44,937 nucleotides of DNA from a phage, in NCBI GenBank assembly GCA_025700225.1, contig GCA_025700225.1_4339.1, one strand, 5' to 3'. Numbering within the stretch: the first letter of the stretch is position 1; every line of letters begins with the position of its first letter. Positions 319 through 44,937 of this stretch are shown here, piece after piece. The translations under genes were made by a program, and so were the position numbers. Under the pieces are notes generated by a model. It searched no databases. It had not been told where the DNA came from and saw only the letters and a program-made list of their open reading frames with translations.

Positions 319-356
319 CGGGGTGGCGCAAGCACAAACAGCGTAGAGTGATTATA

Positions 357-1825: not shown

Positions 1826-1826
1826 C

Positions 1827-2030
1827 TTATTTCTCCTGTTTACCTAATCGTTTCGTTGAACATGTTGCGCGCACCTCGGTATCAATCGGCTTATCACCCT
1901 GAAACAGAAAGTGCACGTTCTCTGCGTTGCGTGCCGCAGCCTGGCACGCCTCCAGTGAGTAAAACGTTTCTGTTGCCGCTAGTTGTAACTGGCCTGCGGT
2001 CAGTGTCCAGATGAAAAGGAGCGTTGTCAT
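1827..2030 (-). CDS. hypothetical protein with hydrophobic N-terminus
   Basis: 67-aa ORF; N-terminal hydrophobic stretch TTLLFIWTLTAGQLQLAA; abuts neighbouring genes. Confidence 0.45.
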   Translation of the reverse strand: MTTLLFIWTLTAGQLQLAATETFYSLEACQAAARNAENVHFLFQGDKPIDTEVRATCSTKRLGKQEK

Positions 2031-2509
2031 TCAGTAATTACCCCGCATTTAGCACAACGCCGGTGTTCTTCACCGTTAGGGTAATAATACTCCCACTCAT
2101 GTTTGCATTTCTGGGTATCTTCTTTCGGTTTGTATTCCTCGTCGTCCCACTCGCGCTTACCGCATTCACAGCAAAACCGACTACCAGGCACGTTGTCCGG
2201 GTTGCCTTCGCCAAGAAACAATCCAGGAGCGATAATCCAATTGTGGTCGCATTCCTGAGTATCATTCTTACGGCAACCAGATTGCTCCGGCTCATGCGGA
2301 AACTTATTAACCAGCACTGATATTTCTTCCTGCAACTCAGACACCAGCGCCGAAGCATCACGTAACTGGTTCTTAAGTGACAACACCTCATGTGCCAGGT
2401 CTTCGCACTGTTGCTTGTATGGGTTGTTCGTTAGCTGCTGCCGTAGTTGGTTAAGCAGGAACTCGATTACTGCGTCGTTGTTACTCACCATCACCTTCCC
2501 CTTCTTCAT
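2027..2509 (-). CDS. Cys-rich hypothetical protein (putative zinc-ribbon clusters)
   Basis: 160 aa; C-terminal half has clustered Cys (GCRKNDTQEC, FCCECGK, RCAKCG); start may be ATG at 2491, which has a better SD. Confidence 0.6.
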   Translation of the reverse strand: MKKGKVMVSNNDAVIEFLLNQLRQQLTNNPYKQQCEDLAHEVLSLKNQLRDASALVSELQEEISVLVNKFPHEPEQSGCRKNDTQECDHNWIIAPGLFLGEGNPDNVPGSRFCCECGKREWDDEEYKPKEDTQKCKHEWEYYYPNGEEHRRCAKCGVITE

Positions 2510-2702
2510 CGATTAACTCAAACTTACCGTTCGCGTGCTGTATAGCTTCTTGTCCGCAATAATCACATACAACGAGTTTATCGAAGCCGTCGAACTCGTC
2601 ACCAACAACGCAAGATAGTACGAATTTGTGGTCGGTACATACCTCTTGCCGCGGCAGGAAGATTGCGCTAATCGACCCTGCTATTGCTTTAATTAAGTTC
2701 AC
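2481..2702 (-). CDS. hypothetical protein
   Basis: 73 aa; GTG start preceded by GGAGG; CDYCG motif. Confidence 0.5.
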   Translation of the reverse strand: MNLIKAIAGSISAIFLPRQEVCTDHKFVLSCVVGDEFDGFDKLVVCDYCGQEAIQHANGKFELIDEEGEGDGE

Positions 2703-2814
2703 CGTCTACCTCCAGTTCGCCGTAAACATGTTCATTGTCGCCGTCGCATACACCGCAAACTTGCAACTCAGCATAAAGCTGTTCCAGTCGTTCTACCGTC
2801 AGATACTTATACAT
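2689..2814 (-). CDS. small hypothetical protein (41 aa, CxxC)
   Basis: ATG at 2814 preceded by GAGGAGAGA; below the ORF-track size cut-off; overlaps the next gene start. Confidence 0.35.
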   Translation of the reverse strand: MYKYLTVERLEQLYAELQVCGVCDGDNEHVYGELEVDGELN

Positions 2815-2840
2815 CTTCTGTCTCTCCTCTCGTTCGTGTA

Positions 2841-2875
2841 AATGAATAGTAGCCTATTCTATCTTAGTGTGCAAG
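2841..2875 (-). promoter_or_regulatory. promoter-operator motif copy (GAATAG-N4-CTATTC palindrome; TTGCAC...TAGAAT read leftward)
   Basis: member of the repeated motif family; sits 25-60 nt upstream of the leftward gene start at 2814. Confidence 0.5.
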
Positions 2876-2881
2876 TAAATT

Positions 2882-3076
2882 TTATTGGTGTTTTAAATAT
2901 AATCGTTCACTGCGAATCCAGTAGTACCTCGGACGTCTGGCCCACTGACGCCATCGCATAACACGGTACTTGCTGCCGTTTAACGCAACAATAAGACCGA
3001 ATCGCTTTTCTCCGTTTCTACCGGTCCAGGTTACGATGTCATTCAGTTTCATTGTTGCATCTCCTGCAATAGTCAC
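2882..3076 (-). CDS. hypothetical protein
   Basis: 64-aa ORF, basic C-terminus. Confidence 0.45.
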   Translation of the reverse strand: MTIAGDATMKLNDIVTWTGRNGEKRFGLIVALNGSKYRVMRWRQWARRPRYYWIRSERLYLKHQ

Positions 3077-3186
3077 TTCGATTGTTGCGTTTGGTGAAAG
3101 TGTCGCTTTTTGACGACACTAATCTAAAGTTGTACGCTGCTACACAGCAGCGTAAGTCACTCAGTAAAATCCCAAACTATTGAACA

Positions 3187-3396
3187 TCACATTCCCGGCG
3201 GCTCAGGTAAAGGCATCCAGTGTGTTGGTTTCCACGAAGCTCCAGGAATTAGCCACCCATCATCAGCGTCAGGATGTCCCGGAATATAAGTAGCCCACTT
3301 CATACGCCAATCACCTTTATGCCCGAACTCCGTTGCTACGAGAACGCCCGTCATTTTAGGAGGCATCCGCTCACTACACTTAATCCACTTGCTCAT
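3187..3396 (-). CDS. DUF551-like phage protein
   Basis: 69 aa; W-rich pattern MSKWIKCSERMPP...THWMPLPEPP resembles DUF551 proteins. Confidence 0.65.
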   Translation of the reverse strand: MSKWIKCSERMPPKMTGVLVATEFGHKGDWRMKWATYIPGHPDADDGWLIPGASWKPTHWMPLPEPPGM

Positions 3397-3554
3397 AAAT
3401 CGCCTCTCTTCTCAAACGCACCAGCCATTACATTCGCACCAGCTTTCCACGCCCGCCACGCAAGACGAGTCTTAACGTTCAGGTACTCTTTCTTCGAACC
3501 CTTGTTAACGGGCAGCCCCTCGACGACGGCCCACCGTTCAAATGCTTCTCTCAT
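3393..3554 (-). CDS. small hypothetical protein (53 aa)
   Basis: ATG at 3554 preceded by GAGGA; stop overlaps next start (ATGA); fills gap between track ORFs. Confidence 0.4.
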   Translation of the reverse strand: MREAFERWAVVEGLPVNKGSKKEYLNVKTRLAWRAWKAGANVMAGAFEKRGDL

Positions 3555-3557
3555 AAC

Positions 3558-3749
3558 TTAGTAATCCTCGTCTTCTTCTTCCTGATACTCGATGAACGCA
3601 CCCAGGCGCTGCAACTCGGCACACGCCATAAAATACCCCAACGCATCGGCGCGTTCCGAATCTGTCTTAAACTCGGATAGTGGATAACGCTCATAGAACT
3701 TGTTAATCAAAAACGCCTGGTCGAATTTAGTAGCGTCGTAATTACTCAT
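3558..3749 (-). CDS. hypothetical protein (acidic C-terminus)
   Basis: 63-aa ORF in coupled array. Confidence 0.5.
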   Translation of the reverse strand: MSNYDATKFDQAFLINKFYERYPLSEFKTDSERADALGYFMACAELQRLGAFIEYQEEEDEDY

Positions 3750-3952
3750 AACTCAACTCCGTTATGTTTCATAAAACTGTTTAACTTATACCTCCGGTAC
3801 CGCGCTACCTCCTTAGCGTGGGCCAAATGCCACGACTTCCACGGAGTGTATTTCGCCTTTTCCCAGCATTCAACACCAAACTCTGCGGCGCGCAGACCAC
3901 CAACCAGACGCGCCAAACGAAATTTGTTATACGGACTCATACCAACCCCCAT
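3746..3952 (-). CDS. hypothetical protein
   Basis: 68-aa ORF, overlapping stop/start with neighbour. Confidence 0.5.
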   Translation of the reverse strand: MGVGMSPYNKFRLARLVGGLRAAEFGVECWEKAKYTPWKSWHLAHAKEVARYRRYKLNSFMKHNGVEL

Positions 3953-4010
3953 AACGCGTGCACCACATAAACGGCGCTGACAATTAAAATAAACGGGTAA
4001 TTATTCATAC

Positions 4011-4268
4011 TTAGTCCTTAACTCTTACCCAAAACTCACCACAATACCAACACCACATAAGATTCGGCGACTCACGCACCCACCCGTAGTCCTTACGCGC
4101 ACGAATTGGGATAATACCTTTAACGCAATAATAGCCTGTGCGCAGAAACTCAGGGTCGCGGGTCGCAGTACGCCACATATTATAAAACTGCGCCAACCCC
4201 GCACCGCGACGCATAACCCGCACCTTATGAAGGGTGTCCGTAACCTTTTCCAGTTCAGTGTTATTCAT
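4011..4268 (-). CDS. hypothetical protein (Cys/Trp-rich)
   Basis: ATG at 4268 preceded by GGGAGG; track ORF extends to a TTG at 4277. Confidence 0.5.
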   Translation of the reverse strand: MNNTELEKVTDTLHKVRVMRRGAGLAQFYNMWRTATRDPEFLRTGYYCVKGIIPIRARKDYGWVRESPNLMWCWYCGEFWVRVKD

Positions 4269-4471
4269 TAACGGCAACCTCCCTCAGAGTCGTCGGCGCT
4301 AGCATCATGATTCGATGCCGTTCGTAGTGCACGTAAAACTTTCAGCAAATCTTCACATGCCTCAGAAGAAACAGTTGAACCGCCTAATAAAGTAACCTTG
4401 TAATGGTTAACTATGAAATGCACTTCTTCCAGTTCATGATGTTTAAGTTCTTCAAATAATTCTTCCATCAC
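4268..4471 (-). CDS. hypothetical protein
   Basis: 67-aa ORF. Confidence 0.5.
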   Translation of the reverse strand: MMEELFEELKHHELEEVHFIVNHYKVTLLGGSTVSSEACEDLLKVLRALRTASNHDASADDSEGGCR

Positions 4472-4662
4472 TTCGCCCCTTTGAATTTAAAATTGTTGCC
4501 GATGAGTTCCATATCCTGCGCGTATAAAACGGTGAGATACGACCCTGCTAAAGATTTTGCGAAATAGACGCTACACTCTTTGTGGTGTACGAATGAAATA
4601 ACCGCTAGCTCTCCTGTCTCAGTAATCCTTACCAACTGACCCTTCTTAAACATAACCCTCAC
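4468..4662 (-). CDS. hypothetical protein, first gene of leftward early arm
   Basis: 64-aa ORF; RBS GAGGAG upstream; adjacent to divergent control region. Confidence 0.55.
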   Translation of the reverse strand: MRVMFKKGQLVRITETGELAVISFVHHKECSVYFAKSLAGSYLTVLYAQDMELIGNNFKFKGAK

Positions 4663-4675
4663 TCCTCTGTCTCGT

Positions 4676-4721
4676 TTCGATAAGTGAATAGTAGCCTATT
4701 ATATTGGTATGTGCAAGCGAA
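4676..4721. promoter_or_regulatory. promoter-operator motif copy in divergent control region
   Basis: tcgataaGTGAATAGtagcCTATTATATTggtatgtgcaag; near-identical to the copy at 37505-37556 in the opposite orientation. Confidence 0.55.
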
Positions 4722-4892
4722 GATTCGTTGCCGTTGTGATTCTTTGGAGGAGGGTTGTGCCTTTATTCTTTTTACTTGGTAACTAGAGGGCAGGCCTTAA
4801 GGCCTGCCCAATAATAGTTACATTTTTACGGTTGCGAATCTACGGCACTTTAAGAAAATCAGTTACTTAGTAACTTTGAGGGATTTTTACAA

Positions 4893-5035
4893 TAGACTAT
4901 GGCCCTTCCGAACGCGTCAGCGTAACTACACTCAGGACTAACGTCCCGCTCCGTTACATGCCGCGCCGCGGTCGCTTGCTCATACTTCACAAGCTCATGT
5001 GGAGCTTACCATATTTTTAAGTAAAAGTCAATACC
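4893..5035. repeat. conserved ~140-bp non-coding element, copy A (candidate structured RNA / cis-regulatory leader)
   Basis: about 85% identical to 37311-37455 in the same orientation; no ORF; hairpins with compensatory changes. Confidence 0.6.
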
Positions 5036-5078
5036 TGTAGCATCTTTTGTATCTTAGTAACTTTGTTCATGGATTGGG

Positions 5079-5107
5079 TTGCTTTTACATTCCCGCTATC
5101 ATATACT
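5079..5107 (+). promoter_or_regulatory. sigma70-like promoter for the rightward replication operon
   Basis: TTGCTT-N17-TATACT about 30 nt upstream of the GGAGG RBS of the gene at 5139. Confidence 0.5.
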
Positions 5108-5138
5108 TGGCTTCATCAAACAGAGAGGAGGTATATAA

Positions 5139-5321
5139 ATGCAACATTACATGACGCAGAATGAAGTAGCTGAACGTATCGGGGTGACTCGCCAGACAAT
5201 TAATAACTGGTTACGCAGTGGTAAATTCCCTGACTGCTGTATTAAGGTAATGGGCCGCCGATTACCAGGTACATTTGACCGTAATAAAGTTGAAGAATGG
5301 ATTAAGGAGAACGTGAAATGA
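5139..5321 (+). CDS. small HTH DNA-binding protein (AlpA/Xis/MerR-like)
   Basis: 60 aa; MTQNEVAERIGVTRQTINNWLRSGKFP is a classic helix-turn-helix; strong RBS GGAGG. Confidence 0.7.
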   Translation: MQHYMTQNEVAERIGVTRQTINNWLRSGKFPDCCIKVMGRRLPGTFDRNKVEEWIKENVK

Positions 5322-5551
5322 TTGGTCGTATGGGTTGTAGCTATAGAGAAGACGGCAGTGTTAAGCATTATTTTAAAATAGCATCTGCTATCTCAGCAGA
5401 AGGTTGTTACGTTGAACTTTTCCCTTACACATTCCGTGGGCCTACTAAGATAGTTAAATACTCTATCGAGGATATTTTGGATTGCCGGTTTTTCCAGACA
5501 GAAGTTGAATGGGTGAACGCCGCCAATATTAAAAAGAAACCCCAACGCTAG
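5318..5551 (+). CDS. hypothetical protein
   Basis: 77-aa ORF, ATGA-coupled to the upstream gene. Confidence 0.5.
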   Translation: MIGRMGCSYREDGSVKHYFKIASAISAEGCYVELFPYTFRGPTKIVKYSIEDILDCRFFQTEVEWVNAANIKKKPQR

Positions 5552-5601
5552 AACGTCGGGGCTAAGGTACAAATCATCAAAGTAAGCACAAGGATTATAC
5601 A

Positions 5602-5730
5602 ATGACAAAGTTAATTGTTCCACAACTACGCCGTCAGAGACACGGCGCTGATTTCTTCGCACCTGTGAAGATGAACCGCGCTATGCGCCGTATGCAGGAA
5701 GCTTTAGAACGTGCGGAGAAAAAGAAATGA
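5602..5730 (+). CDS. small basic hypothetical protein (42 aa)
   Basis: ATG preceded by AAGGA; stop overlaps primase/helicase start (ATGA). Confidence 0.35.
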   Translation: MTKLIVPQLRRQRHGADFFAPVKMNRAMRRMQEALERAEKKK

Positions 5731-7934
5731 ATATCATCTTCGCTACCCTTAGAAACACGTTCGATAAAAACCCGGTCGCGCGCGAGATGCCACTGGAACA
5801 GTTTGTCGAGTTTGTGTGTGATACGTCGAAACGTATGTCCGTCGACCCGTCGTGGACAAAAGAAGAATACGACGCAGCTAAGATTAAGCAGAAGGCTATC
5901 GCTCCTGTTGGTGGTCGCCGTAAAAACGCGATACTCGAAGACAGCGTGGTTAAGTTCGACTTCGACCATCTTACACGCGCGCAGTACCGCGACCTTACCC
6001 GCAAATTCAAGAACGCGCCGTTCTTCAATATTCTGCATACAACGGCGTCGCACCAGCACGCGTGCAAGAACGGTGACTACGCGTTCCGTGTTCTTGTTCC
6101 TGCACGAACCCCGTTTAACACTAACGATGCCTGGATGGTGCAACGCGCTATTTGCGCAGAGTTAGAGATTGACGAATCTCTTCGCGACCACTGCACAGAG
6201 GACGGCAACCGTCTTATCTACCTGCCGCATAAAGAGTCGAAGATAACTGTTACAGAAGGTCGTGTTATCCGCGCCGAACGCTACATAAAAAAAGCTGAGG
6301 GGATGGGGCTTAAGAAACGTGAAGCTAAGACACTTGCCGCCGATGAGCACGGTCTTAACGCGGATATAGCGCATTTTTGCGAAGCAGAGTTGGGCCTTGA
6401 AGCGCTGTCGTCAGGTCGTGGATACGAAGTACCATGCCCCAACGAACACCTGCATACGGGGAAAGGCTCCACCAGTATCATGTTAGATGGTAAAGAGGTG
6501 CGTTTTGTATGTCAGCATACTAACAACGGCTCGTGCACTGAACTTAACCGCCGCCAGCATCTGGCCTTGCGTATGTGCGGTTTACCAGATGAACTGAACG
6601 TTGATAAGCAGCCAATCAGCATCAACAGTATCCGCGCCGCGCTCCCAGATTTACCGGAAGAAGAGATTGAAGAACTGCACCGTACAGAAAACGAAGAATC
6701 GGTAACTTGCACGCTGGAAGACCTTGAAGAAGAGGATGAGTTACCGGAACCGGTAAAGGCCGATTTCGTCGTCGAGGGCTACATGCCGTCAGATTGCATA
6801 TGGGATATCGTCGGTGAGTCCGGCACATATAAGTCTTTCTACACCCTGGGCATGATGTACCTTAGCGCCGCCGGGTACCGGTTCGCAGGCGCTGATACGC
6901 AGCGCTGCCATCACTTCTACATTGACGGGGAAGGCGGCGCGGCTACACGCACACGTATTGACGCACTGGCGGCTAAGTACGGAGAGGAAGGCAAGAACTA
7001 CATCCACGTTATCGATATGGGTGAAGTCGGAAAACTGAAAAGCCTGATTAAGCTGATGCGCGAAACTGCTGGCGACGAGCCAATTGGCATGGTTGCGTTC
7101 GATACCCTCAACCAGACGCTGGCCCTGACTATTGATAAGTTCGACGAGAATAGCTCATCAACGGCAATCGGTATGGGTAAAGTTATCGCCATACTGAAAG
7201 AAGTCCGCGATGCGACTAAAGCTGCCGTTGGAGTTGTACACCACACGCCAAAAGGCGGAAAGAAAGCCCGTGGTAGCGGTGCGCTGTACGCGGGCGTGGA
7301 CGTTGAACTGACAATTGAGCGCGCAACAGACCGCCAGATTAACGTCTCGCACACTAAATTTAAGCACGGGCCGCAACAGAAAACGATTGGTATGGTGCTG
7401 GAGCCGGTGCAGTTTCGTGAAGCCCCTCCACCGAAAGAGTACCGCGCGGTAGAGTTCATCGGTAGCACCGAGGAATACGGCGCAATCGTAAACCTTGACC
7501 TGCCGGAACCCCATAAGGCGCTCGTGTTAATGCCGTGGGGCTTTGAGCCGTTCAAGACAGATGAGGAAAAAGAGCGGGAAGAAGGGCTGTCTAAAGAAGG
7601 GAAAGAAAAAGTAAAGGAAGAAGTTAAACGCGGCAGGGATGAAGTAAGGAAGGAGTCAATACTCTCGGCACTCGAAGACCTGCAACAGTCCGACGACACT
7701 GGCCGCGGGTTTACACAACGGCAGATAGTAGCCAATTCTGGCGACCACTCTATAACTAACCACCATCTTGAGAAGATGCTGAAAGACGGTGAGTTGATGT
7801 TGGGGTGTGACGTTAACGGTGAGGTGATACCGGGAACATACCGGATACCAGAAAAGATGGGGGACAGGCTGAGGCCGAAGACAGTGTACGAACCGAATGA
7901 AATGCTGGTAGTGACCGAGGAGGATTTGGAATGA
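5727..7934 (+). CDS. DNA primase/helicase (N-terminal primase-like region plus P-loop NTPase/helicase domain)
   Basis: 735 aa; Walker A-like GESGTYKS and a second nucleotide-binding region; Glu/Lys-rich C-terminal extension; sits in the replication module. Confidence 0.8.
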   Translation: MNIIFATLRNTFDKNPVAREMPLEQFVEFVCDTSKRMSVDPSWTKEEYDAAKIKQKAIAPVGGRRKNAILEDSVVKFDFDHLTRAQYRDLTRKFKNAPFFNILHTTASHQHACKNGDYAFRVLVPARTPFNTNDAWMVQRAICAELEIDESLRDHCTEDGNRLIYLPHKESKITVTEGRVIRAERYIKKAEGMGLKKREAKTLAADEHGLNADIAHFCEAELGLEALSSGRGYEVPCPNEHLHTGKGSTSIMLDGKEVRFVCQHTNNGSCTELNRRQHLALRMCGLPDELNVDKQPISINSIRAALPDLPEEEIEELHRTENEESVTCTLEDLEEEDELPEPVKADFVVEGYMPSDCIWDIVGESGTYKSFYTLGMMYLSAAGYRFAGADTQRCHHFYIDGEGGAATRTRIDALAAKYGEEGKNYIHVIDMGEVGKLKSLIKLMRETAGDEPIGMVAFDTLNQTLALTIDKFDENSSSTAIGMGKVIAILKEVRDATKAAVGVVHHTPKGGKKARGSGALYAGVDVELTIERATDRQINVSHTKFKHGPQQKTIGMVLEPVQFREAPPPKEYRAVEFIGSTEEYGAIVNLDLPEPHKALVLMPWGFEPFKTDEEKEREEGLSKEGKEKVKEEVKRGRDEVRKESILSALEDLQQSDDTGRGFTQRQIVANSGDHSITNHHLEKMLKDGELMLGCDVNGEVIPGTYRIPEKMGDRLRPKTVYEPNEMLVVTEEDLE

Positions 7935-8128
7935 GCGGTAAATTTAAAGAAGTTAGCGACGAACTGAAAGGTAATAAATACATGAACCACAGAGGTGAGA
8001 TAGTAGAAGTCCTGAATGTTACTACTTATGGCCGTGGTTACCATGTTATATACAGTTACACAGAGGCGTACAGCGTATACTGCGGTCTTGGTAAGTTTAG
8101 GAAAAGATATCCGATAAAAGTAGAGTAA
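7931..8128 (+). CDS. hypothetical protein
   Basis: 65-aa ORF, ATGA-coupled to primase/helicase. Confidence 0.5.
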   Translation: MSGKFKEVSDELKGNKYMNHRGEIVEVLNVTTYGRGYHVIYSYTEAYSVYCGLGKFRKRYPIKVE

Positions 8129-8152
8129 AAAGAAAGGGGCGTTAAGCCCCTT
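8121..8152 (-). terminator. hairpin terminator for the leftward XRE gene
   Basis: stem aaggggc/gcccctt; on the minus strand followed by TCTTTTTACT; XRE stop codon lies in the loop. Confidence 0.5.
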
Positions 8153-8366
8153 GAGTCTGGTCTCCGAAAGCCAACCACTCTGGTTTAACTTCGAGAACTT
8201 CCGCGAGTTTAAACAGAGTGGTTCGACGGACATCCTGAGTTACGCCGAGGGCCAGTTGATTAATTGCCCCCTGGGAAACGCCGACCAGAGTAGCTAAACG
8301 GCGCTGAGACAGGCCAAGCTCTTTACGGCGTTGCTCCATACGAGCGCCAATTGGTGACTGTTGCAT
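8142..8366 (-). CDS. XRE-family HTH transcriptional regulator (Cro/CI-like)
   Basis: 74 aa; LSQRRLATLVGVSQGAINQLA matches the XRE HTH pattern; AAGGAG RBS; lone opposite-strand gene inside the rightward operon. Confidence 0.8.
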   Translation of the reverse strand: MQQSPIGARMEQRRKELGLSQRRLATLVGVSQGAINQLALGVTQDVRRTTLFKLAEVLEVKPEWLAFGDQTQGA

Positions 8367-8387: not shown

Positions 8388-8415
8388 TGATATGTGAATA
8401 GTAGCATATTAATTT
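8388..8415 (-). promoter_or_regulatory. promoter-operator motif copy upstream of XRE gene
   Basis: gtGAATAGtagcATATTA 20-50 nt upstream of the XRE RBS. Confidence 0.4.
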
Positions 8416-8429: not shown

Positions 8430-8458
8430 TTGACAGGTGAATAGTTGGCTATTATAGT
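8430..8458 (+). promoter_or_regulatory. consensus sigma70 promoter with embedded palindromic operator
   Basis: TTGACA-N17-TATAGT; spacer contains GAATAG-ttgg-CTATTA; divergent from the XRE gene. Confidence 0.7.
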
Positions 8459-8491
8459 TAGCTCATACCAAACGAGAGGAGAGAAAGAAAA

Positions 8492-8668
8492 ATGGCTAAG
8501 AGAAAAGATTACGACGCCAACTGGAAAGTATGGTTTCCTGATTTCATACTTGAGGGTCGTGGTAATGTTAAAGGTATGGTTGTGCAAGCATTTAGCTATA
8601 TACCAGAAAACATGCAGAAAGATATTTTGAAAGAACTTAAAACTATCTCAGAAGAGGAGAACAAATAA
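8492..8668 (+). CDS. small hypothetical protein (58 aa)
   Basis: ATG at 8492 preceded by AGGAGAGA, downstream of promoter 8430-8458; stop overlaps next ATG. Confidence 0.45.
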   Translation: MAKRKDYDANWKVWFPDFILEGRGNVKGMVVQAFSYIPENMQKDILKELKTISEEENK

Positions 8669-9198
8669 TGTTAGAGAAATTCTTAGTATTACTGGAACGT
8701 TTCGTAGTTGCACACGAACTGATTGCTGCTAACAGCGTTCGCCGTACGGAACTGCCGAAGGCCATTACTGCGCCGTATGGTAAAGGCGCCGCGCCGCTAG
8801 AAGTAGAGACGGTAGTGTATACCAAAGAGGCGGTAGCCGAGTGCGCTGAAGAAGCAACAAAAGAAATCCCGGTCGAAGGTGAAGACGTCGTTGATACTAA
8901 ACCGGCAGAGGAAGAGAAGCCAAAACGCAAGCCGCGTAAAGCTAAAGTAGAGGAACCTGCGCCAGAGCCGGAAGAAGAGAAGGAAGAAGTCGATTATCAG
9001 TCTCTGCGTGACCAGATTCAGGCTATCGACGATGCGATTAACGAAGGCCCGAGCGATGCCGCGTGTGATGATTCTGATGAACTGCTGGAAGAGTTCACCG
9101 GTAAGAAGATGAAGATTGCCGCGATTAAAGACGAAGACCTGGCTGAATACCTGGAACGTCTGACGGCGATTAAGAACAAGTATTTCGAAGAAGAATAA
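8668..9198 (+). CDS. highly acidic hypothetical protein
   Basis: 176 aa, strong excess of Asp/Glu (EEEKPKRKPRKAKVEEPAPEPEEEKEEVD...). Confidence 0.6.
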   Translation: MLEKFLVLLERFVVAHELIAANSVRRTELPKAITAPYGKGAAPLEVETVVYTKEAVAECAEEATKEIPVEGEDVVDTKPAEEEKPKRKPRKAKVEEPAPEPEEEKEEVDYQSLRDQIQAIDDAINEGPSDAACDDSDELLEEFTGKKMKIAAIKDEDLAEYLERLTAIKNKYFEEE

Positions 9199-9211
9199 CT
9201 ACTTAACTTAT

Positions 9212-9235
9212 GGTGCCCTCAGTAGCGAGGGCACC
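9212..9235 (+). other. 9-bp GC stem-loop (attenuator-like, no T-run)
   Basis: ggtgccctc-agtagc-gagggcacc directly upstream of the conserved GAGGGTCGGAAA initiation region. Confidence 0.4.
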
Positions 9236-9253
9236 AAACTGAGGGTCGGAAAC

Positions 9254-9490
9254 ATGATTATTAAAGATATCAACAACGATGAAGCCAGAGTTAGCCTTGA
9301 GGTTCGCAACACGATACAGGGAAAGCAGAAAAGAGTAACCCTAGATTTCGACCCTGCGGATGAGATGAACGGGCTGTCGTTCATGGAATATACGCCTGAT
9401 ATGGCGCGCGAACTTGCTAAAGCACTTATTTCCGCCGCAGATGAAGCGGAGGCTATGCTGGACGAACTTGACTTTTATAGTTTTGAATGA
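9254..9490 (+). CDS. acidic hypothetical protein
   Basis: 78 aa; conserved initiation region GAGGGTCGGAAACATGATT. Confidence 0.55.
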   Translation: MIIKDINNDEARVSLEVRNTIQGKQKRVTLDFDPADEMNGLSFMEYTPDMARELAKALISAADEAEAMLDELDFYSFE

Positions 9491-9501
9491 GGGTCGGAAA
9501 T

Positions 9502-9774
9502 ATGATTTACCAACTATATCGCGCTGTAGACAGGCGGGATAACACAGAGGCGCTATGGCTGTTACGTGCCCCGTCCGGCGCGCACCAGATGGACGAGATG
9601 GCGTACTTAGGCAAAGTACCACGGCCTAAAGATATAGGCCGTCACGTGTCGCAGATTAAGCGCACGACTTTCGCCAAACCTGACTTTTATGTCTTCGAGT
9701 CGATGTATGGGTGGGCTATGCATTGCCAGCACCAGACCAGACATTTAATTGACCAGTGGGAGAACAGGGTATGA
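9502..9774 (+). CDS. hypothetical protein
   Basis: ATG at 9502 preceded by GAGGGTCGGAAAT; track ORF extends to 9487. Confidence 0.5.
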   Translation: MIYQLYRAVDRRDNTEALWLLRAPSGAHQMDEMAYLGKVPRPKDIGRHVSQIKRTTFAKPDFYVFESMYGWAMHCQHQTRHLIDQWENRV

Positions 9775-10115
9775 CTGATAAATGGTGGCTTAATTTGCGC
9801 AGCGGTGACAAAGTTTACACCGTCGGCGACCGCAGAAAGAACAGTGGTGCAGCTACTGTGCTGCAAAACGGTAGAAAGTACATCCACATTGCGCATGAAG
9901 CTCGCGTGCTACGTGTGAATAAATCGTCTGGCAGACTTGAGGATTACCCGAAAACATTAATATACAAAAGTGAAAAGCATCACATGTCTGCTGTTGACGC
10001 AAGACGTAAGTTCGCGGGGATGCTGCAACAGTTAAGCGACTTACATCGCGATGATTCTTTCATACCAACAGAAGAACAGTTACAGGCATTAAACTTGTAT
10101 TTGGAGAGTTTATGA
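9771..10115 (+). CDS. hypothetical protein
   Basis: ATG at 9771 overlapping upstream stop (ATGA); 114 aa. Confidence 0.5.
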   Translation: MTDKWWLNLRSGDKVYTVGDRRKNSGAATVLQNGRKYIHIAHEARVLRVNKSSGRLEDYPKTLIYKSEKHHMSAVDARRKFAGMLQQLSDLHRDDSFIPTEEQLQALNLYLESL

Positions 10116-11356
10116 TGATTCTAAAAGAACGCGGCGGCAATAACGACGTACACGCCCTGCTGTCGCCGTCAGGTGCTAAAAAGTGGCTGGCGTGCAGCGC
10201 TTCGTTAGCCTGTGAAAAAGATATCCCGAACACGTCCGGTAAAGCTGCCGTATTAGGCACGGCTATGCACACAATATCTGAGATTCACTTGAATCAGTAC
10301 ATCAAGGGCACTGCGCTACCGTTAGAGCGTGAAGTCGGTGCTTACGTGCTGGATGAGGGTAAAGGCCAGATTAAGGCACTAATCAGCCCGATGAAAGGCG
10401 CGGTACTGATTACGGCGGATATGATTGAGCAGGTTCGCAAGTACACAGACTACTGCAAAGCTATTATCGATGTAGCGACTTACGCCAAGCTGGAAATGCG
10501 CGTCAATCTTACTGAGGTATTGCATCCTGGCTACGAAGGTGTCGAGACGTTCGGGACTGCTGACCTTGTTGCCGTACAGGAACTGGCTAACACCGACGAG
10601 TACATGCTCATTATCGGAGACCTGAAAACTGGACGGCATCGTGTTGAAGCGAAAGAAAACAAGCAGCTTATGCTTTACGCTCTCGGTGTTTATCGCCGAC
10701 TCAAGAGACGTTATAGCATCACCGTGGTTCGTCTGGTCATCTTCCAGCCGTATGCTGGCGGTGCGTCGGAGTGGGACATATCGGTTGAAGGTCTGGAACT
10801 GTTCGCTAAGTTCGCGCAGAAACGTGCGCTGTTAGCTCTTGATGCGTATTTCCGTGGCAAGAAGAACCTGAAAGCGTCAGACTTCAAACCGTCGGTGGAC
10901 GGTTGCCAGTGGTGCCGGTTCTCTGAACAGTGCGCTGCGCGTACAAAGACGGTTAATTCTGTACTGGCAGAAGAACTGGATGGCGACTTCGCGCTGGAAC
11001 TGACGCCAGAGCAACTTGTAGCTGAATATGAGAAGTTGCCGTTGTTGCGCCAGCATATCGACAAGGTAGAAAAAGCGATGTCTGCCGCGTTGCATTACGG
11101 TAAGAAAGTGCCGGGATACAAGTTGGTGGAAGGCCGTCCGGGTAATCGTGCGTGGAAAGACGCCGACAAGGTGGCTGAGAAATACGGCGACAAGCTGACT
11201 AAAGAAGTGCTCATGACGCCGACCGAAGCGGTTAAGGTTATCCCGGAAGAAGAACTGAAAGACTTCATCACACGTAAGCCAGGTTCACCATGTGTAGCAA
11301 CGGTAGACGACAAACGGCCTGAGTGGAATCAGGTAACAGAGGAGGATTTAGAATGA
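10112..11356 (+). CDS. PD-(D/E)XK exonuclease, Cas4/RecB-like with Fe-S Cys cluster
   Basis: 414 aa; N-terminal LACSASLAC and C-terminal CQWCRFSEQC (CX2CX5C) as in Cas4/AddB nucleases; replication-module context. Confidence 0.75.
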   Translation: MMILKERGGNNDVHALLSPSGAKKWLACSASLACEKDIPNTSGKAAVLGTAMHTISEIHLNQYIKGTALPLEREVGAYVLDEGKGQIKALISPMKGAVLITADMIEQVRKYTDYCKAIIDVATYAKLEMRVNLTEVLHPGYEGVETFGTADLVAVQELANTDEYMLIIGDLKTGRHRVEAKENKQLMLYALGVYRRLKRRYSITVVRLVIFQPYAGGASEWDISVEGLELFAKFAQKRALLALDAYFRGKKNLKASDFKPSVDGCQWCRFSEQCAARTKTVNSVLAEELDGDFALELTPEQLVAEYEKLPLLRQHIDKVEKAMSAALHYGKKVPGYKLVEGRPGNRAWKDADKVAEKYGDKLTKEVLMTPTEAVKVIPEEELKDFITRKPGSPCVATVDDKRPEWNQVTEEDLE

Positions 11357-11604
11357 TTCGTAAAATGTTCAGAGTACTTGGCGGGTTTGTAGCGTGTATT
11401 GTTTTCTGGGTTCTTATGCTTCCTCTGACGATACCAACATTTGTCTTAATGTGCCTTACGGTGTGTATAACGCAAACACGTGACATTGAAGCCATCCTGA
11501 ATGACAAATCGTGGAAGACACAGGCGCTTCGTTCCATAAACAACATGAAATGGCCAAACAAGTATATTGAGATAGTTGAGAAAATAACTGGCTGGAAGTG
11601 TTGA
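11353..11604 (+). CDS. small membrane protein (two predicted TM helices)
   Basis: ATG at 11353 coupled to upstream stop; hydrophobic VLGGFVACIVFWVLMLPLTIPTFVLMCLTVCI. Confidence 0.5.
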   Translation: MIRKMFRVLGGFVACIVFWVLMLPLTIPTFVLMCLTVCITQTRDIEAILNDKSWKTQALRSINNMKWPNKYIEIVEKITGWKC

Positions 11605-11629
11605 CACCTGAATAGTTAGCTATTATAGT
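11601..11629 (+). promoter_or_regulatory. consensus sigma70 promoter with embedded palindromic operator
   Basis: TTGACA-N17-TATAGT with GAATAG-ttag-CTATTA in the spacer; 55 nt upstream of the SSB-like gene. Confidence 0.7.
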
Positions 11630-11686
11630 TCTAATCACTGGCCGGGCAGCTTCCCGGAGTAAACTGAAAAACTGAGGAATCGAGAG

Positions 11687-12316
11687 ATGGGTATTAAGCT
11701 GAATCTGCGTAAAGTAAACACTGCTTGGGTTAACGTATTCGAACGCGAAAAAGACCGTGAAAACGACGATGGCTCTATCACTAAAGGTCAGTACAGCGCA
11801 ACTATCATCATGCCGTCTGACCATGCGCAAATCGACGAAATGTACGACACCGTTTACGCTGTAGTTGAAGAGGCGTTGGGTGCAGCCGCTGCCGAGAAAT
11901 GGATGAAGTCCAACTACGGCGAAGGTAAGCACATGGATAAATGCGCGATTAAAGACATTGCCGAGCGCGACAATCCGTTTGAAGACTTCCCGGAAGGCTT
12001 CTACTTCAAAGCGAAGGCACAGAAACAGCCGCTGATTGTAACCTCTAAAAAAGGTGAGACTCAGGTAGAGCAGGACTTCAACGTAGACGGCGAGCAGATT
12101 GAAGGCGAACAGGTTTACAGCGGCTGCGTCGCTAACGTTAGCGTTGAAATCTGGTTCAGCCAGAAATACAAAGTCCTCGGCGTTAACCTGCTGGCGATTA
12201 AATATGTTGGCGAAGGTAAAGCGTTTGGTGGTTCTAAAGTTGCAGCCAGCGTCAATGACCTGGAAGACGACGAAGAAGATGAAGCACCGCGCCGCGAACG
12301 TCGTCGCCGTGGTTAA
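11687..12316 (+). CDS. phage ssDNA-binding protein (DUF2815-like) with acidic tail
   Basis: 209 aa; acidic C-terminal tail DLEDDEEDEAP typical of SSBs; precedes DNA polymerase. Confidence 0.7.
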   Translation: MGIKLNLRKVNTAWVNVFEREKDRENDDGSITKGQYSATIIMPSDHAQIDEMYDTVYAVVEEALGAAAAEKWMKSNYGEGKHMDKCAIKDIAERDNPFEDFPEGFYFKAKAQKQPLIVTSKKGETQVEQDFNVDGEQIEGEQVYSGCVANVSVEIWFSQKYKVLGVNLLAIKYVGEGKAFGGSKVAASVNDLEDDEEDEAPRRERRRRG

Positions 12317-12335
12317 TATCTGAATATGTTTAATT

Positions 12336-12358
12336 AAGGCCCTTTATTGGGCCTTTTT
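12336..12358 (+). terminator. intrinsic terminator after SSB-like gene
   Basis: stem aaggccc/gggcctt followed by TTTTT. Confidence 0.7.
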
Positions 12359-12374
12359 ACTAAGGGTCGAAATA

Positions 12375-12518
12375 ATGATTTTCTGTAAGCACGTATACCG
12401 CTATATAAAACCGCTTCCGTGGTACGCGGATGAGTACCGGCATGTGTGGATTTGCCGTGATTGTATGAAAATAAGATTCAGCGAAACGAAGGCACTGGAT
12501 TTAAGGAAAAAGAAATGA
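12375..12518 (+). CDS. small basic hypothetical protein (47 aa)
   Basis: ATG preceded by AAGGGTCGAAATA motif; stop overlaps DNA polymerase ATG (ATGA). Confidence 0.35.
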   Translation: MIFCKHVYRYIKPLPWYADEYRHVWICRDCMKIRFSETKALDLRKKK

Positions 12519-14698
12519 ACCGCTACTTATACTTAGACTTTGAAACCTTCTCCGAAGCCGATTTGAAGAAAGTCGGTTCTTATGCTTACGCCGAACATCC
12601 GACTACCGAAGTGCTTATCTGCACCTATGCCTTTGATGATGAACCGGTTCAGGTATGGGACTGCACTGACGGCAGCGATATGCCGGGAGATTTGCACCGC
12701 GCGTTACGCCGTCTGGTGAAGCCAAACAGCCGTATCAAGATGGTCTGGCACAACGGCTCAATGTTCGACCGCCTCATCATGAAGAACTGCTGGGGCTTTG
12801 ATATCCCGGTCAGCAATACCATCGATACGATGATTTGGGCGTTTCGTCACGCGCTGCCAGGTTCACTTGACGCATTGTGCGAAGTGCTGGGTGTATCCGC
12901 CGACAATGCGAAAGATAAACGCGGCAAGGCGCTGATTCAGCGTTTCTCAAAACCTACGCCGAAGAACTACAAAATCCGCCGCTACACCGCCGAAACACAC
13001 CCGGACGAGTGGGCGCTGTTCATCAAGTACGCCGTGAGCGACATCACCGCGATGCGTGAAGTCTTTCATAAGCTGCCGCGTTGGGGTAACTCCGAGTTCG
13101 AGGACCGCGTACTGGAACTGGACCAGTTAATCAATGACCGCGGGTTTAAGGTTGACGTTGCACTGGCGGAAGCCGCGATTGAAGCCGTAGAGAAACACAA
13201 GGCGCAGTTGCAGGAAGAAGCTCAGCGTAAATACGGCGGCTCACTTACCGGTAAAGACTTCCTGCCGATTCTGCGTGAACTGGCTCCTGCGCATCGCATA
13301 CACAACGCGCAGAAGTCGACGCTTAACGACCTGCTGGCGGACGAGGATTTACCGGACGACGCGCGCACGATTATCGAAATGCGCCTCGGGGCTGCGTCTA
13401 CCGCGTCAACGAAATATAACCCGCTGCTGTTAGGTCGCTCGTCGGACGACCGCCGCCGCGGTTGCATCCAGTACGGCGGAGCTAAGCGTACATTACGATT
13501 CGCCGGTAAAGGCTTCCAGCCGCAGAACCTGGCGCGCGGGTACTATCATGACGATGAGCTGGATAAAGGGATTTCTGCGTTGCTGAAAGGACGTGCTCAT
13601 CGTCGGTTTGATGTAGCCAAGCTAACGGCGTCAACAGTGCGTAGCTGCATCATCCCGGAAGCCGGGCATAAGTTTGTTGTTGCCGATTACTCTAACGTGG
13701 AAGGCCGTGGCCTGGCGTGGTTGGCGGGCGAAGAAACCGCGCTTGATACGTTCCGCGCCGGGCTGGATATTTACTGCGTAACGGCTGGCAAGATGTTTGG
13801 CCTGGAACCAGATTACATTAAGAAAGAACGTAAAGACTTACGCCAGATTGGTAAAGCCTGCGAATTGGGCCTTGGGTACGCTGGGGGTGTCGGGGCTTTC
13901 GTTCAGTTCGCCAAGAACCTCGGCCTTGACCTCGTAGACATGGCTAAGACAATGGCGGGTACATTCCCCGACCATATCTGGGCCGCTACGGCACGGGGTT
14001 ACGAGTGGGCTCGTATTCAGGAAGCTAAGCGCCCCCCGCGTCCGGGTGAAAAGGACGACAGACCATCATATATCCTTGATAAGAAAGTCTGGCGTACATG
14101 CGACGCGATTAAGCGTATGTGGCGTGAGTCTCACCCGGAAACAGTAGCTTTCTGGCGAGATATTGAAGACGCGGCTATGGCAGCTATCCGCAATCCAGGT
14201 AAAGAGTTCACCGCAGGGCCGCGCGGTGTTAAGTTTTCGCGTAACGTAGAAACAGACAACAACGGCAACAAAGTCGCCGGTTGGTGGCTGCGCATGACGT
14301 TGCCGTCCGGTCGCGTTATGTCTTACCCGGGTGTAGGATTGAGCGTGTCGAAAGAGACAGACGAAGACGGGAAGGTGTCTACTAACGTGCGCATCAAGTA
14401 CCAGGGTGAAAACCAGTTAACCCGTCAGTGGGGCTTCCAGTACACCTACTCCGGTAAACTCGTGGAAAACTGTACGCAGGCGCTGTGCCGTGATTTGCTG
14501 GCCAATGCGCTGCTGAACGTAGAGGCAAACGGCTACCCGATTGTACTTCACGTACACGATGAGATTATCTGCGAGACGCCAGATTTACCGGAATACAATG
14601 TCACAGAGCTTGAGCGGTTGATGTGTTCGCTGCCTGAGTGGGCTGAGGGGTTCCCTCTTGTGGCAGAAGGTGCGGAGATGAAGCGTTATGCTAAGTAA
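12515..14698 (+). CDS. family A DNA polymerase with N-terminal 3'-5' exonuclease domain
   Basis: about 727 aa; DnaQ-like Exo I motif YLDFETFS; polymerase motifs C-terminal (VHDEIICE); start taken at ATG 12515 with AAGGA RBS (track ORF begins at 12461). Confidence 0.88.
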   Translation: MNRYLYLDFETFSEADLKKVGSYAYAEHPTTEVLICTYAFDDEPVQVWDCTDGSDMPGDLHRALRRLVKPNSRIKMVWHNGSMFDRLIMKNCWGFDIPVSNTIDTMIWAFRHALPGSLDALCEVLGVSADNAKDKRGKALIQRFSKPTPKNYKIRRYTAETHPDEWALFIKYAVSDITAMREVFHKLPRWGNSEFEDRVLELDQLINDRGFKVDVALAEAAIEAVEKHKAQLQEEAQRKYGGSLTGKDFLPILRELAPAHRIHNAQKSTLNDLLADEDLPDDARTIIEMRLGAASTASTKYNPLLLGRSSDDRRRGCIQYGGAKRTLRFAGKGFQPQNLARGYYHDDELDKGISALLKGRAHRRFDVAKLTASTVRSCIIPEAGHKFVVADYSNVEGRGLAWLAGEETALDTFRAGLDIYCVTAGKMFGLEPDYIKKERKDLRQIGKACELGLGYAGGVGAFVQFAKNLGLDLVDMAKTMAGTFPDHIWAATARGYEWARIQEAKRPPRPGEKDDRPSYILDKKVWRTCDAIKRMWRESHPETVAFWRDIEDAAMAAIRNPGKEFTAGPRGVKFSRNVETDNNGNKVAGWWLRMTLPSGRVMSYPGVGLSVSKETDEDGKVSTNVRIKYQGENQLTRQWGFQYTYSGKLVENCTQALCRDLLANALLNVEANGYPIVLHVHDEIICETPDLPEYNVTELERLMCSLPEWAEGFPLVAEGAEMKRYAK

Positions 14699-14819
14699 AC
14701 TGATTATCGCGGTACTGGCGGGATTCGCCGCCGGTGTCTATTGTCACGAGGGGCAATACGGCATGATTGTCGCCGTATTGGGTATGTTAGTAGCAATTTA
14801 TCTGTGGGTGCTGGAATGA
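14688..14819 (+). CDS. tiny membrane protein (43 aa)
   Basis: ATG overlapping end of polymerase gene; hydrophobic; first of three ATGA-chained mini-ORFs. Confidence 0.25.
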   Translation: MLSKLIIAVLAGFAAGVYCHEGQYGMIVAVLGMLVAIYLWVLE

Positions 14820-14905
14820 AAATTTACTGGTTATACGAAGAAGACTGCCGAATCTGTCCGCGCTGCGGGATTGAGCATACGAAACGTGAGGGGTGTGTAT
14901 TATGA
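14816..14905 (+). CDS. tiny Cys-rich peptide (29 aa)
   Basis: CRICPRCG motif; ATGA-chained. Confidence 0.2.
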   Translation: MKIYWLYEEDCRICPRCGIEHTKREGCVL

Positions 14906-15054
14906 CAATGTTTGTATTTTGGACGATAGTAACCATGCTCGCACTGTTACTCGGTGCAGGAATAGCCGCGGTGTTCTGTTATGGCCTGTTCTTTAAGTTT
15001 GTCGGTGTTGCCGTTCTAGGAGGGGCTTTCCTTACTTGGGTTCTGCGATCATGA
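14902..15054 (+). CDS. tiny membrane protein (50 aa)
   Basis: hydrophobic throughout; ATGA-chained to the VRR-NUC gene. Confidence 0.25.
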   Translation: MTMFVFWTIVTMLALLLGAGIAAVFCYGLFFKFVGVAVLGGAFLTWVLRS

Positions 15055-15335
15055 CCCCGGAAGGCAAAATACAGAAATACGCGAAAGAGCGATTCGAGGC
15101 CCTCGGAGGCCTCGTTAGAAAATTGTCGTACGAAAATAGAGTAGGCGCCCCCGACCTGTTAGTAATCCTCCCCGGCGGCATCATCTGGTTCGTCGAGGTG
15201 AAGAAAGACGAAAATACGAAGCCAGACCCGCACCAGCTACGTGAGCACGAACGGCTGCGTAAACGCGGTGCAAATGTTTTTGTCGTTGGCTCGTTTAAAC
15301 AGGTTGACGACCTAATAGCAAACTATTATAGTTAG
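15051..15335 (+). CDS. VRR-NUC domain nuclease (PD-(D/E)XK)
   Basis: about 94 aa; GAPDLLVILPGG...FVEVKKDE carries the D...EVK signature; frequent partner of SNF2 helicases in phages. Confidence 0.75.
   Translation: MTPEGKIQKYAKERFEALGGLVRKLSYENRVGAPDLLVILPGGIIWFVEVKKDENTKPDPHQLREHERLRKRGANVFVVGSFKQVDDLIANYYS
15304..15332 (+). promoter_or_regulatory. consensus-like sigma70 promoter with perfect palindrome TAATAG-N4-CTATTA
   Basis: TTGACG-N17-TATAGT inside the 3' end of the VRR-NUC gene, 35 nt upstream of the next gene. Confidence 0.55.
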
Positions 15336-15365
15336 TCCTACACCAACAATATAAGGAATTGATAA

Positions 15366-27867: not shown

Positions 27868-27905
27868 ACTTGCACACCCCAATATAATAGGGCACTATTC
27901 ACCTG
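27868..27905. promoter_or_regulatory. promoter-operator motif copy (TTGCAC...TATAAT rightward; TAATAG-N4-CTATTC palindrome)
   Basis: 35 nt upstream of the plus-strand island gene at 27924; reverse reading faces the chaperone gene. Confidence 0.55.
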
Positions 27906-37310: not shown

Positions 37311-37455
37311 TAGACTGGCGGCCTTCCGGATACGTCAGCGGAACTACACTCAGTGCTTACGCACCGCTCCGTTCCCTGCCGCAACGCGGTCGCTTGCGAT
37401 AACTCACAAGCTCAGGTGGAGCTTAGCATATTTTTAGTGAAAAGTCAACTATTAG
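37311..37455. repeat. conserved ~140-bp non-coding element, copy B
   Basis: about 85% identical to 4893-5035, same orientation; stem positions covary. Confidence 0.6.
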
Positions 37456-37504: not shown

Positions 37505-37556
37505 GTATCTGTGCTTGCGTACACCAATATAATAGGGTACTATTCACTTATCGAAA
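37505..37556. promoter_or_regulatory. promoter-operator motif copy (near-identical to 4676-4721, inverted)
   Basis: TATAAT at 37527-37532 facing the plus gene at 37578; TAATAG-N5-CTATTC palindrome. Confidence 0.55.
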
Positions 37557-39323: not shown

Positions 39324-39391
39324 AAATAACCCTGTGGCGCTAAAGTTAATAGCATACTATAAGAAAGCCCCTTTCGGGGCTACAGGTGAAC

Positions 39392-42678: not shown

Positions 42679-42769
42679 ATAACCCCCTGACATATGCGTC
42701 TGACCATCAGAGCGCATCAGACGCGCCCTACGCGTCTAAAGGGATTATATAAGGGGATTGGGCGGGATG

Positions 42770-42796
42770 TACAGAAAAGCCCTCCGTAGAGGGCTT
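42770..42796 (-). terminator. intrinsic terminator after the leftward early gene cluster
   Basis: stem agccctc/gagggct; on the minus strand followed by TTTTCT; separates small early genes from the terminase operon. Confidence 0.6.
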
Positions 42797-44886: not shown

Positions 44887-44916
44887 AATATAATAGGGTC
44901 TAAGGTAATAGTCAAC
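44887..44916 (-). promoter_or_regulatory. sigma70-like promoter with TAATAG repeats, reading leftward
   Basis: on minus strand TTGACT-N18-TATATT; contains two TAATAG half-sites; about 30 nt upstream of the gene at 44852. Confidence 0.5.
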
Positions 44917-44937
44917 TAGTCATTGCAGAAAATAGAT

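Follow-up and report, generated by a model that had tools for sequence, protein, structure and literature searches.

A conserved palindrome over sigma70-type promoters of a Kagunavirus phage as a putative operator for a 434 Cro-like protein

The promoter at 8430-8458 of the phage genome analyzed here is overlapped by an inverted repeat of the form (G/T)AATAG-N4-CTATT(A/C), copies of which lie at promoters elsewhere in the same DNA. This raises the question of whether the palindrome belongs to the promoter itself or serves as the target of a regulator and, in the latter case, which protein would bind it and how much of the transcription program it would control.

The window, by which we mean the whole stretch of DNA analyzed (44,937 bp), was placed by megablast in the genus Kagunavirus (Guernseyvirinae), which comprises virulent siphoviruses of E. 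coli, with 85-89% identity to published genomes; several hundred Jerseyvirus (Salmonella) relatives lie further off. The end of the window (...gaaaatagat) runs on into its start (aaaaaaaaatcccgg...), as in Bas72 and UTEC10, indicating that the sequence is a complete, circularly permuted genome. The junction falls inside a strong minus-strand terminator (CCCGGC...GCCGGG then T9; 1-35 and 44921-44937), which closes the lysis cluster and lies just upstream of the promoter at 44915..44887. The gene map, which is based on open reading frames and the annotation of Bas72, UTEC10, JD01, and buks, is as follows.

1-4653, minus strand: non-structural genes
5139-8128, plus strand: non-structural genes
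8142-8366, minus strand: XRE gene
8492-17964, plus strand: non-structural genes
42717 down to 17996, all minus strand: late structural genes, broken by two plus-strand islands
27924-30488 and 37578-37790, plus strand: the two islands in the late region
44852-42802, minus strand: small-gene cluster upstream of the terminase genes
17967-17994, 30491-30518, and 37795-37815: bidirectional terminators of one near-identical family, AAGGCCCC-N4/5-GGGGCCTT, at module borders

This terminator family is common to all relatives, in which it is the second-ranked palindrome. Neither an integrase nor a cI protein with a peptidase domain is encoded in the window or in the annotated relatives.

Copies of the palindrome and the promoters that carry them

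Searches with KAATAG-N4-CTATTM returned seven exact matches in the window, with cores starting at 2845, 4687, 8440, 11611, 15314, 27886, and 37531, against 0.02 expected from shuffles. When AATAG-N4-CTATT was allowed at most one mismatch, 12 matches were obtained against 1.35 expected, the additional positions being 8397, 39348, 44907, 37440, and 20662. The ten copies listed by the first-pass annotation were thus all recovered at the positions given there, seven of them exact and three (8397, 39348, and 44907) with one mismatch. The match at 37440 is intergenic and was not among the listed copies. The match at 20662, inside a tail gene, scored below 2 with a position weight matrix (PWM) and was rejected as chance. 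The PWM was trained on the ten claimed sites, the high scores of which therefore arise by construction; 11 sites reached at least 16 bits in the scan and the next best match 8.2 bits. Site 37440, which was outside the training set, scored 16.0 bits, about the 95th percentile of the null maximum.

The sites and their promoters are listed below, the position of the palindrome being given as that of the operator, a designation argued for in the next section.

8430..8458, plus strand: P-right, type A, TTGACA-N17-TATAGT (11/12 to consensus; orthologous alignment); the operator core GAATAGTTGGCTATTA at 8440-8453 lies in the spacer and extends one base into the -10; its targets, from 8492 onward on the plus strand, are small genes and an exonuclease
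8388..8415, minus strand: the XRE gene's own promoter, with -10 TACTAT and a weak, A/T-rich -35 region; the imperfect operator AATAGTAGCATATT (8397-8410, one mismatch) lies over the -10
11601..11629, plus strand: type A, TTGACA-N17-TATAGT (11/12), operator 11611-11624, heading the single-stranded DNA-binding/annealing protein and DNA polymerase cluster
15304..15332, plus strand: type A, TTGACG-N17-TATAGT (10/12), palindrome TAATAGCAAACTATTA at 15313-15328, within the 3' end of the preceding gene and heading the methyltransferase/helicase cluster
4676..4721, minus strand: type B, cTTGCAC-N17-TACTAT, with TATAAT over the upstream half-site and operator 4687-4700, heading the leftward early cluster from 4653
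2841..2875, minus strand: type B, operator 2845-2858, internal to the leftward cluster, the end of which is holin and endolysin
27868..27905, plus strand: type B, operator 27886-27899, heading the island 27924-30488 within the late region, which is closed by a terminator at 30493-30512
37505..37556, plus strand: type B, operator 37531-37544, heading a single small gene (37578-37790) in a moron-like cassette closed by the bidirectional terminator 37795-37815
44887..44920, minus strand: type C, TTGACT-N17-TATATT (10/12), heading small genes from 44852 downward; the near-palindrome ACTAGTTGACTATT (minus strand, 44907-44920) contains the -35
39348..39361: degenerate copy AATAGCATACTATA, adjoining a terminator at 39366-39381
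37440..37453, minus strand: candidate eleventh site AATAGTTGACTTTT, one mismatch, overlapping the -35 of the late leader RNA promoter (TTGACT 37448..37443, N17, TAAGCT 37425..37420)

Nine of these copies, that is, all except 39348 and 37440, precede a correctly oriented start codon with a ribosome-binding site by 24-62 nt. The copy at 39348 looks like the decayed promoter of an empty moron slot (39340-39385); the equivalent slot of UTEC10 (40825-41360) is occupied, with a type B promoter that is intact, a pair of small genes, and the terminator. Equivalents of 37440 with one mismatch are present at the same place in JD01 and buks.

Inspection of the promoter elements bears out the description of three plus-strand copies as sigma70 promoters (TTGACA, TTGACA, and TTGACG with a 17-bp spacer and TATAGT), and the copy at 15304-15332 is indeed a perfect palindrome, of 16 bp. 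Agreement with the sigma70 hexamers amounts to 11, 11, and 10 of 12 positions in type A and 10 of 12 in type C, and the only two 11/12 matches in the whole genome are type A copies. In type B, the hexamers (TTGCAC-N17-TACTAT) match at only 7 of 12 positions; the layout is conserved even so, with TTGACG as the -35 of Jerseyvirus. The flanks reported as shared, TTGCAC...ccaaTATAATAGG...CTATTCAC, are present at 4687, 27886, and 37531, and the type B copies have 35-48 nt in common, leader included. Because conservation of the type B promoters reaches far past the dyad, into the -35 and the leader, some of the enrichment is attributable to a single promoter cassette being present in several copies.

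A leader motif, (G/A)AACGAGA(G), was observed downstream of type A, B, and C promoters (8466-8480, 2816-2830, 4660-4675, 37552-37565, and 44860-44875). In some cases it merges with the ribosome-binding site, in others it precedes that site by 10-15 nt; SE1 has the motif as well.

The palindrome as an element separate from the promoter

The position of the palindrome relative to the promoter hexamers differs between the three types. In type A (8440, 11611, and 15314), the -35 is followed after 4 nt by the palindrome, the last T of which is the first base of TATAGT. In type B (2845, 4687, and 8397 on the minus strand; 27886 and 37531 on the plus strand), cTTGCAC is followed after 10 nt by the palindrome, with the -10 TACTAT at a 17-bp spacing and a TATAAT also overlapping the upstream half-site. 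In type C, to which 44907 and possibly 37440 belong, the -35 TTGACT lies within the palindrome, A(A/C)TAG-TTGA-CT(A/T)TT. Jerseyvirus adds registers of 7 nt (JD01 site 41774) and 11 nt. Types A and B share an extended element, TATAATAG-N3-ACTATTCAC, which faces opposite ways relative to the gene in the two types. A -10 hexamer is unidirectional. That the dyad keeps its 5-N4-5 form while sliding and flipping against the -35 and -10 indicates that it is not a promoter part.

Comparison with related phages was consistent with this. Terminators aside, no inverted repeat ranked above AATAG-N4-CTATT in any of the Kagunavirus or Jerseyvirus sequences examined, with 7-9 exact copies per complete Kagunavirus genome (and a further 37 IMG/VR loci) and with four exact and about three one-mismatch copies, extended to TAATAG-N4-CTATTA, in Jerseyvirus. 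Orthologous promoters were aligned through their flanks to avoid selection on the motif, using 34 unique sequences for P15314 and 36 Kagunavirus plus nine Jerseyvirus unique sequences for the XRE/P-right intergenic region. Variation fell in the linker after the -35 and in the central 4 bp, and the half-sites were invariant. Conservation within a genus has low power here, whole intergenic regions being ∼90% conserved; across Kagunavirus and Jerseyvirus, the half-sites of homologous promoters are kept. The imperfect distal half-site of the 8397 operator is likewise conserved in both genera. SE1-like Guernseyvirinae retain orthologous promoters (e.g. TTGCAT-N18-TATAGT and TTGACA-N17-TATATT), and no multi-copy dyad was found in them, the half-sites having drifted. 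The promoters, therefore, do not need the dyad. The claim that sigma70-type promoters share a dimer-sized palindrome overlapping their core elements thus holds, and, judged from its sequence behavior, the palindrome is very likely an operator, an element separate from the promoter.

The principal alternative is that there is no dedicated regulator and that the dyad is a by-product of a multiplied cassette, its half-sites being -10-like hexamers on opposite strands. The right half-site does always contribute to a -10 (TATAGT, TATTAT, or TACTAT), the type B copies share sequence over the length given above, and the reverse reading of 4687, 27886, and 37531 scores 9/12. We nevertheless regard this explanation as unlikely, given that the left half-site of type A lies in the spacer, where sigma70 needs no sequence, yet is invariant; that the 5-N4-5 form is kept in four registers; that the reverse promoters are unconserved in UTEC10 or Jerseyvirus; and that SE1 promoters work without a dyad. 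The related proposal that several copies may fire in both directions is weak: reverse hexamers are present in the window (TCGATA or GTTACA, N17, TATATT; 9/12) but are not conserved in UTEC10, Bas72, or Jerseyvirus.

Candidate binding proteins

The product of the gene at 8142..8366 (minus strand) is a 74-aa XRE/HTH_3 protein that resembles 434 Cro and is the candidate repressor. It matches Pfam HTH_3 with E = 3e-13, and its best sequence match in the PDB is 434 Cro (E = 5e-7, full length). The AF2 model, obtained from single-sequence input, has five helices at a pLDDT of 80.8; the top Foldseek match of this model is 2cro, with C.AhdI at rank 4. The gene is divergent from P-right, and the 125-bp gap between them contains two operator copies 43 bp apart, one of which covers the XRE gene's own -10. 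A divergent gene with an imperfect operator over its own -10 would correspond to the usual logic of an autoregulated repressor.

The operators of phage 434 are 14 bp long, with the form ACAA(G/T)-N4-(A/C)TTGT. AATAG-N4-CTATT fits this layout of 5-bp inverted half-sites around a variable 4-bp center, and two features of a 434-type system were found together, namely a five-helix HTH_3/XRE regulator and operators lying over the promoter core, including that of the regulator itself. Dyads of the same geometry also occur between -35 and -10 beside the genes of distant XRE/cI homologues (LexA-type cI proteins encoded on other contigs), with different half-sites (ATTAG-N4-CTAAT and ATAAG-N4-CTTAT).

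Two observations count against the XRE protein. Its recognition helix differs between the genera (SQGAINQ versus SQSLITH, with 51% identity overall), whereas the core half-site is identical, and SE1 phages possess an XRE homologue but no dyad regulon. Phage 434 Cro and cI differ from each other yet share operators; the helix difference is therefore tolerable but lends the XRE assignment no support. On balance, homology, geometry, and gene arrangement make the 74-aa XRE protein the probable binder of the operator.

The XRE protein of the window shares no more than 80% identity with its counterpart in any database phage, against 85-89% identity of the neighboring genes at the DNA level, and one IMG/VR contig (L007) encodes an XRE protein 100% identical to that of the window together with an RNA element (see below) that is only 83% identical. 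These mismatches point to mosaic exchange of the regulator module. No homologue with more than 44% identity was found outside the two genera in the phage database, and a scan of bacterial genomes returned none above 51% identity. The best bacterial match was a Jerseyvirus contaminant: an 18,987-bp scaffold in a Taishania pollutisoli assembly (NZ_JACVEL010000022.1) carries a Jerseyvirus XRE gene and an intergenic region of the Salmonella-phage type and probably represents phage contamination of that assembly.

The first-pass annotation had proposed that a phage helix-turn-helix protein binds the palindrome and had named two. The XRE protein, 434 Cro-like and flanked by two copies, gives this proposal substance; the other protein, of 60 aa and the HTH_17 (excisionase/MerR-like) type (5139-5321), persists as a rival that would bind the same operator, leaving XRE to act locally or elsewhere. 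The HTH_17 protein matches its Pfam family with E = 1e-8 and is 78-84% identical between Kagunavirus and Jerseyvirus; its homologues are restricted to these two genera and absent from SE1, which is exactly the distribution of the dyad. Furthermore, because its operon promoter lacks a dyad in the window, it could be made before the regulated set. The structured RNA described below, however, shares this phyletic pattern, which thus does not discriminate. For small HTH proteins of the excisionase type, the usual mode is monomeric binding or recognition of direct repeats rather than of 5-N4-5 dyads, and the HTH_17 gene has no dyad beside it and its product no significant solved homologue. Geometry and local arrangement favor XRE, and we consider HTH_17 a quite improbable binder.

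Recognition of the dyad by a host transcription factor is very unlikely. Nothing specific speaks for it beyond an A/T-rich motif that superficially recalls E. coli operators such as those of OxyR (ATAG-N7-CTAT) and TrpR (CTAG), from which it differs in spacing and half-sites. Moreover, the dyad is common to E. coli and Salmonella phages and is lost in SE1, a Salmonella phage with the same kind of host, and two copies lie next to the gene of a phage protein that would fit.

The repeat itself has been published. The fBC-Eco01 (Kagunavirus) genome paper lists seven 20-mers with the consensus tgAATAGTa-ccTATTat-T, predicted with PHIRE as "phage RNAP promoters," and the VB_EcoS-Golestan (Kagunavirus) paper also reports seven PHIRE sequences. 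These belong to the same sequence family as the operators of the window; dyad symmetry, sigma70 context, and a repressor are not discussed in either report and, as far as the literature consulted shows, the sigma70 context, dyad nature, and repressor reading have not been published. Promoters of a phage-encoded RNA polymerase, as labeled for fBC-Eco01, are refuted by gene content, there being no RNA polymerase gene in the window or its annotated relatives, and the hexamers at the sites are canonical for sigma70. A single RNA-seq paper on a Kagunavirus, K1B4, was found; it places an HTH-domain gene among four early genes and maps no promoters. A literature search on Cro-like repressors of virulent phages returned nothing useful.

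Extent of the regulon, the late region, and comparison with known systems

Palindrome-bearing promoters head every non-structural transcription unit except one, the HTH_17/helicase-primase operon. The view that the palindrome overlaps most transcription units and gates the whole program was overstated, as the palindrome is missing from helicase-primase, terminase, and late promoters and from the XRE-proximal RNA promoter.

5079-5107: promoter of the HTH_17/helicase-primase operon, TTGCTT-N17-TATACT, without palindrome
42773..42744, minus strand: promoter before terS, without palindrome
5031..5003, minus strand: XRE-proximal copy of the RNA promoter, without palindrome

The RNA promoters are associated with an ∼140-nt non-coding repeat that occurs twice in the window (4893-5031 and 37311-37448); the elements in and next to it are as follows.

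37312-37415 and 4894-4998, minus strand: two copies of a structured RNA of ∼105 nt (covariance model)
37448..37420 and 5031..5003, minus strand: RNA promoters, TTGACT-N17-TAAGCT
37251-37232 and 4812-4789, minus strand: GC-rich hairpins after the RNA copies

With a covariance model built from 12 sequences, the late-region copy was detected in every complete Kagunavirus genome and the XRE-proximal copy in about 20 of 37 loci. Diverged copies occur at the same late position in the Jerseyviruses buks (36.6 bits) and JD01 (31.8 bits), where the RNA heads the late spanin/scaffold/capsid operon; none was detected in SE1. Covariation was strong: 96.9% of cells are paired, compared with 30-45% when partners were slid, nine pairs have changes on both sides, and none of 500 shuffles reached the observed values. 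G-U pairs fix the strand. Rfam gave no match for the window or for the RNA element, and matches from a degenerate pattern scan of IMG/VR were mostly chance, the covariance model accepting only Kagunavirus contigs.

The interval from the hairpin 37251-37232 to the start codon of the first late gene (37207) contains no promoter, and the tail operon (27762 downward) likewise lacks a conserved one of its own. For late expression, several terminators would thus seem to have to be read through, the late structural operons apparently relying on transcription that continues into them from a separate unit of promoter and leader RNA. The structured RNA may be a late leader or antitermination element, either put-like or dependent on a Q/AlpA-type factor. 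As a hypothesis only, this arrangement recalls lambda PR'/6S/Q and the two put RNAs of HK022, which are ∼70 nt long, have two stems, and lie downstream of PL and PR.

Two further repeats were noted near the late RNA promoter. Upstream of it, at 37447-37462, is an everted perfect repeat of operator half-sites, AACTATT-AG-AATAGTT, and over its -10 and start region (37408-37424) is an inverted repeat, AAGCTC-N5-GAGCTT, the arms of which are conserved and the loop of which differs from one relative to the next. A second regulator might bind at either repeat. The long non-coding region between the leftward cluster and the helicase-primase operon (4700-5139) contains blocks conserved across genera, namely GTTACGTTGCCGTTGTGATTCTT..., the hairpin GGGCAGGCC-TTAA-GGCCTGCCC (4789-4812), and ...CGTTACATTTTTACGGTTGCGAATCTACGGCAC; a block of ∼200 nt from it is duplicated in JD01 (19430-20160). 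This region is a candidate replication origin or further RNA.

The sites, promoter context, conservation pattern, and protein family computed here can be combined with a binder, its binding, the sign of regulation, and its timing, all of which we infer, in the following scheme. The host sigma70-type promoters would each carry a 14-16-bp operator, (G/T)AATAG-N4-CTATT(A/C), for a dimeric phage-encoded HTH repressor, most likely XRE. Since the operator always lies over the spacer and -10 or over the -35, a bound dimer would exclude RNA polymerase. On infection, host polymerase would fire all operator-bearing promoters, that is, those of the leftward early cluster, the XRE gene, the three replication/recombination clusters, the two late-region islands, and the small-gene cluster. 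As XRE accumulated, these promoters would be turned down together, the XRE gene's own promoter, with its imperfect operator, being shut last. Read from the sequence, this most likely amounts to a Cro-like turn-down of early and middle transcription, not to whole-program control.

A broader proposal, which we hold only tentatively and think rather unlikely, is that this virulent siphovirus runs its whole program on unmodified host RNA polymerase through a Cro-only regulon of ∼10 promoters combined with late terminator read-through from the RNA leader. With two such devices, the ∼105-nt RNA would either bring about put-like antitermination in cis or be the place where a Q/AlpA-like factor, e.g. 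HTH_17, is loaded.

Phages of Kagunavirus and Jerseyvirus are common candidates for therapy and biocontrol and offer small chassis to synthetic phage biology; the BASEL collection now includes them. The regulatory map in the literature is wrong at this motif, which is labeled a phage RNA polymerase promoter. Should the predicted binding be true, the sites would provide a compact parts list of promoters and operators and a testable explanation of early shut-off in a phage whose genome contains no gene for a polymerase, a sigma factor, or a known late activator; they would also exemplify a Cro-type protein retained in the absence of cI, with a regulon that has come to span the genome. Such a mechanism is of a classical kind, and the gain lies in annotation and an engineering handle, not in a new principle.

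The closest known system is phage 434, with its Cro and cI proteins and OR/OL operators (and similarly P22 c2 and lambda Cro). The likeness extends to a small five-helix XRE protein of Cro size, with 434 Cro as its best match in sequence and fold; to two 5-bp inverted half-sites around 4 variable bp, with an A..AG half-site pattern, over the promoter core; to a regulator gene divergent from the rightward operon with operators between; and to the proposed turn-down of early transcription in lytic growth. Unlike 434, the phage has no cI partner, integrase, or lysogeny module and so presents a Cro-only arrangement; its ten or eleven operators are spread over the whole 45-kb genome instead of forming two clusters of three; they occupy several registers, including one within the -35; and the half-site is AATAG, not ACAA(G/T), with binding predicted. 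Having neither a paired cI-type repressor nor an integrase, the locus is not a lambdoid immunity region.

In the P1 C1 and mycobacteriophage L5 gp71 ("stoperator") systems, one protein likewise acts at many scattered sites on many units. The P1 C1 and L5 sites are asymmetric and maintain lysogeny, and stoperators act in transcribed regions in an orientation-dependent manner. In the window, by contrast, dyad-symmetric sites are located on the promoters of a virulent phage that has no lysogeny genes. C proteins of restriction-modification systems (C.AhdI) resemble the proposed regulator in being small XRE dimers on palindromic boxes over their own promoter; they regulate one operon by paired C-boxes with an activation/repression switch, and the genes here give no restriction-modification context. 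Set against these examples, the system is unusual only in the number of its sites and in its occurrence in a virulent phage.
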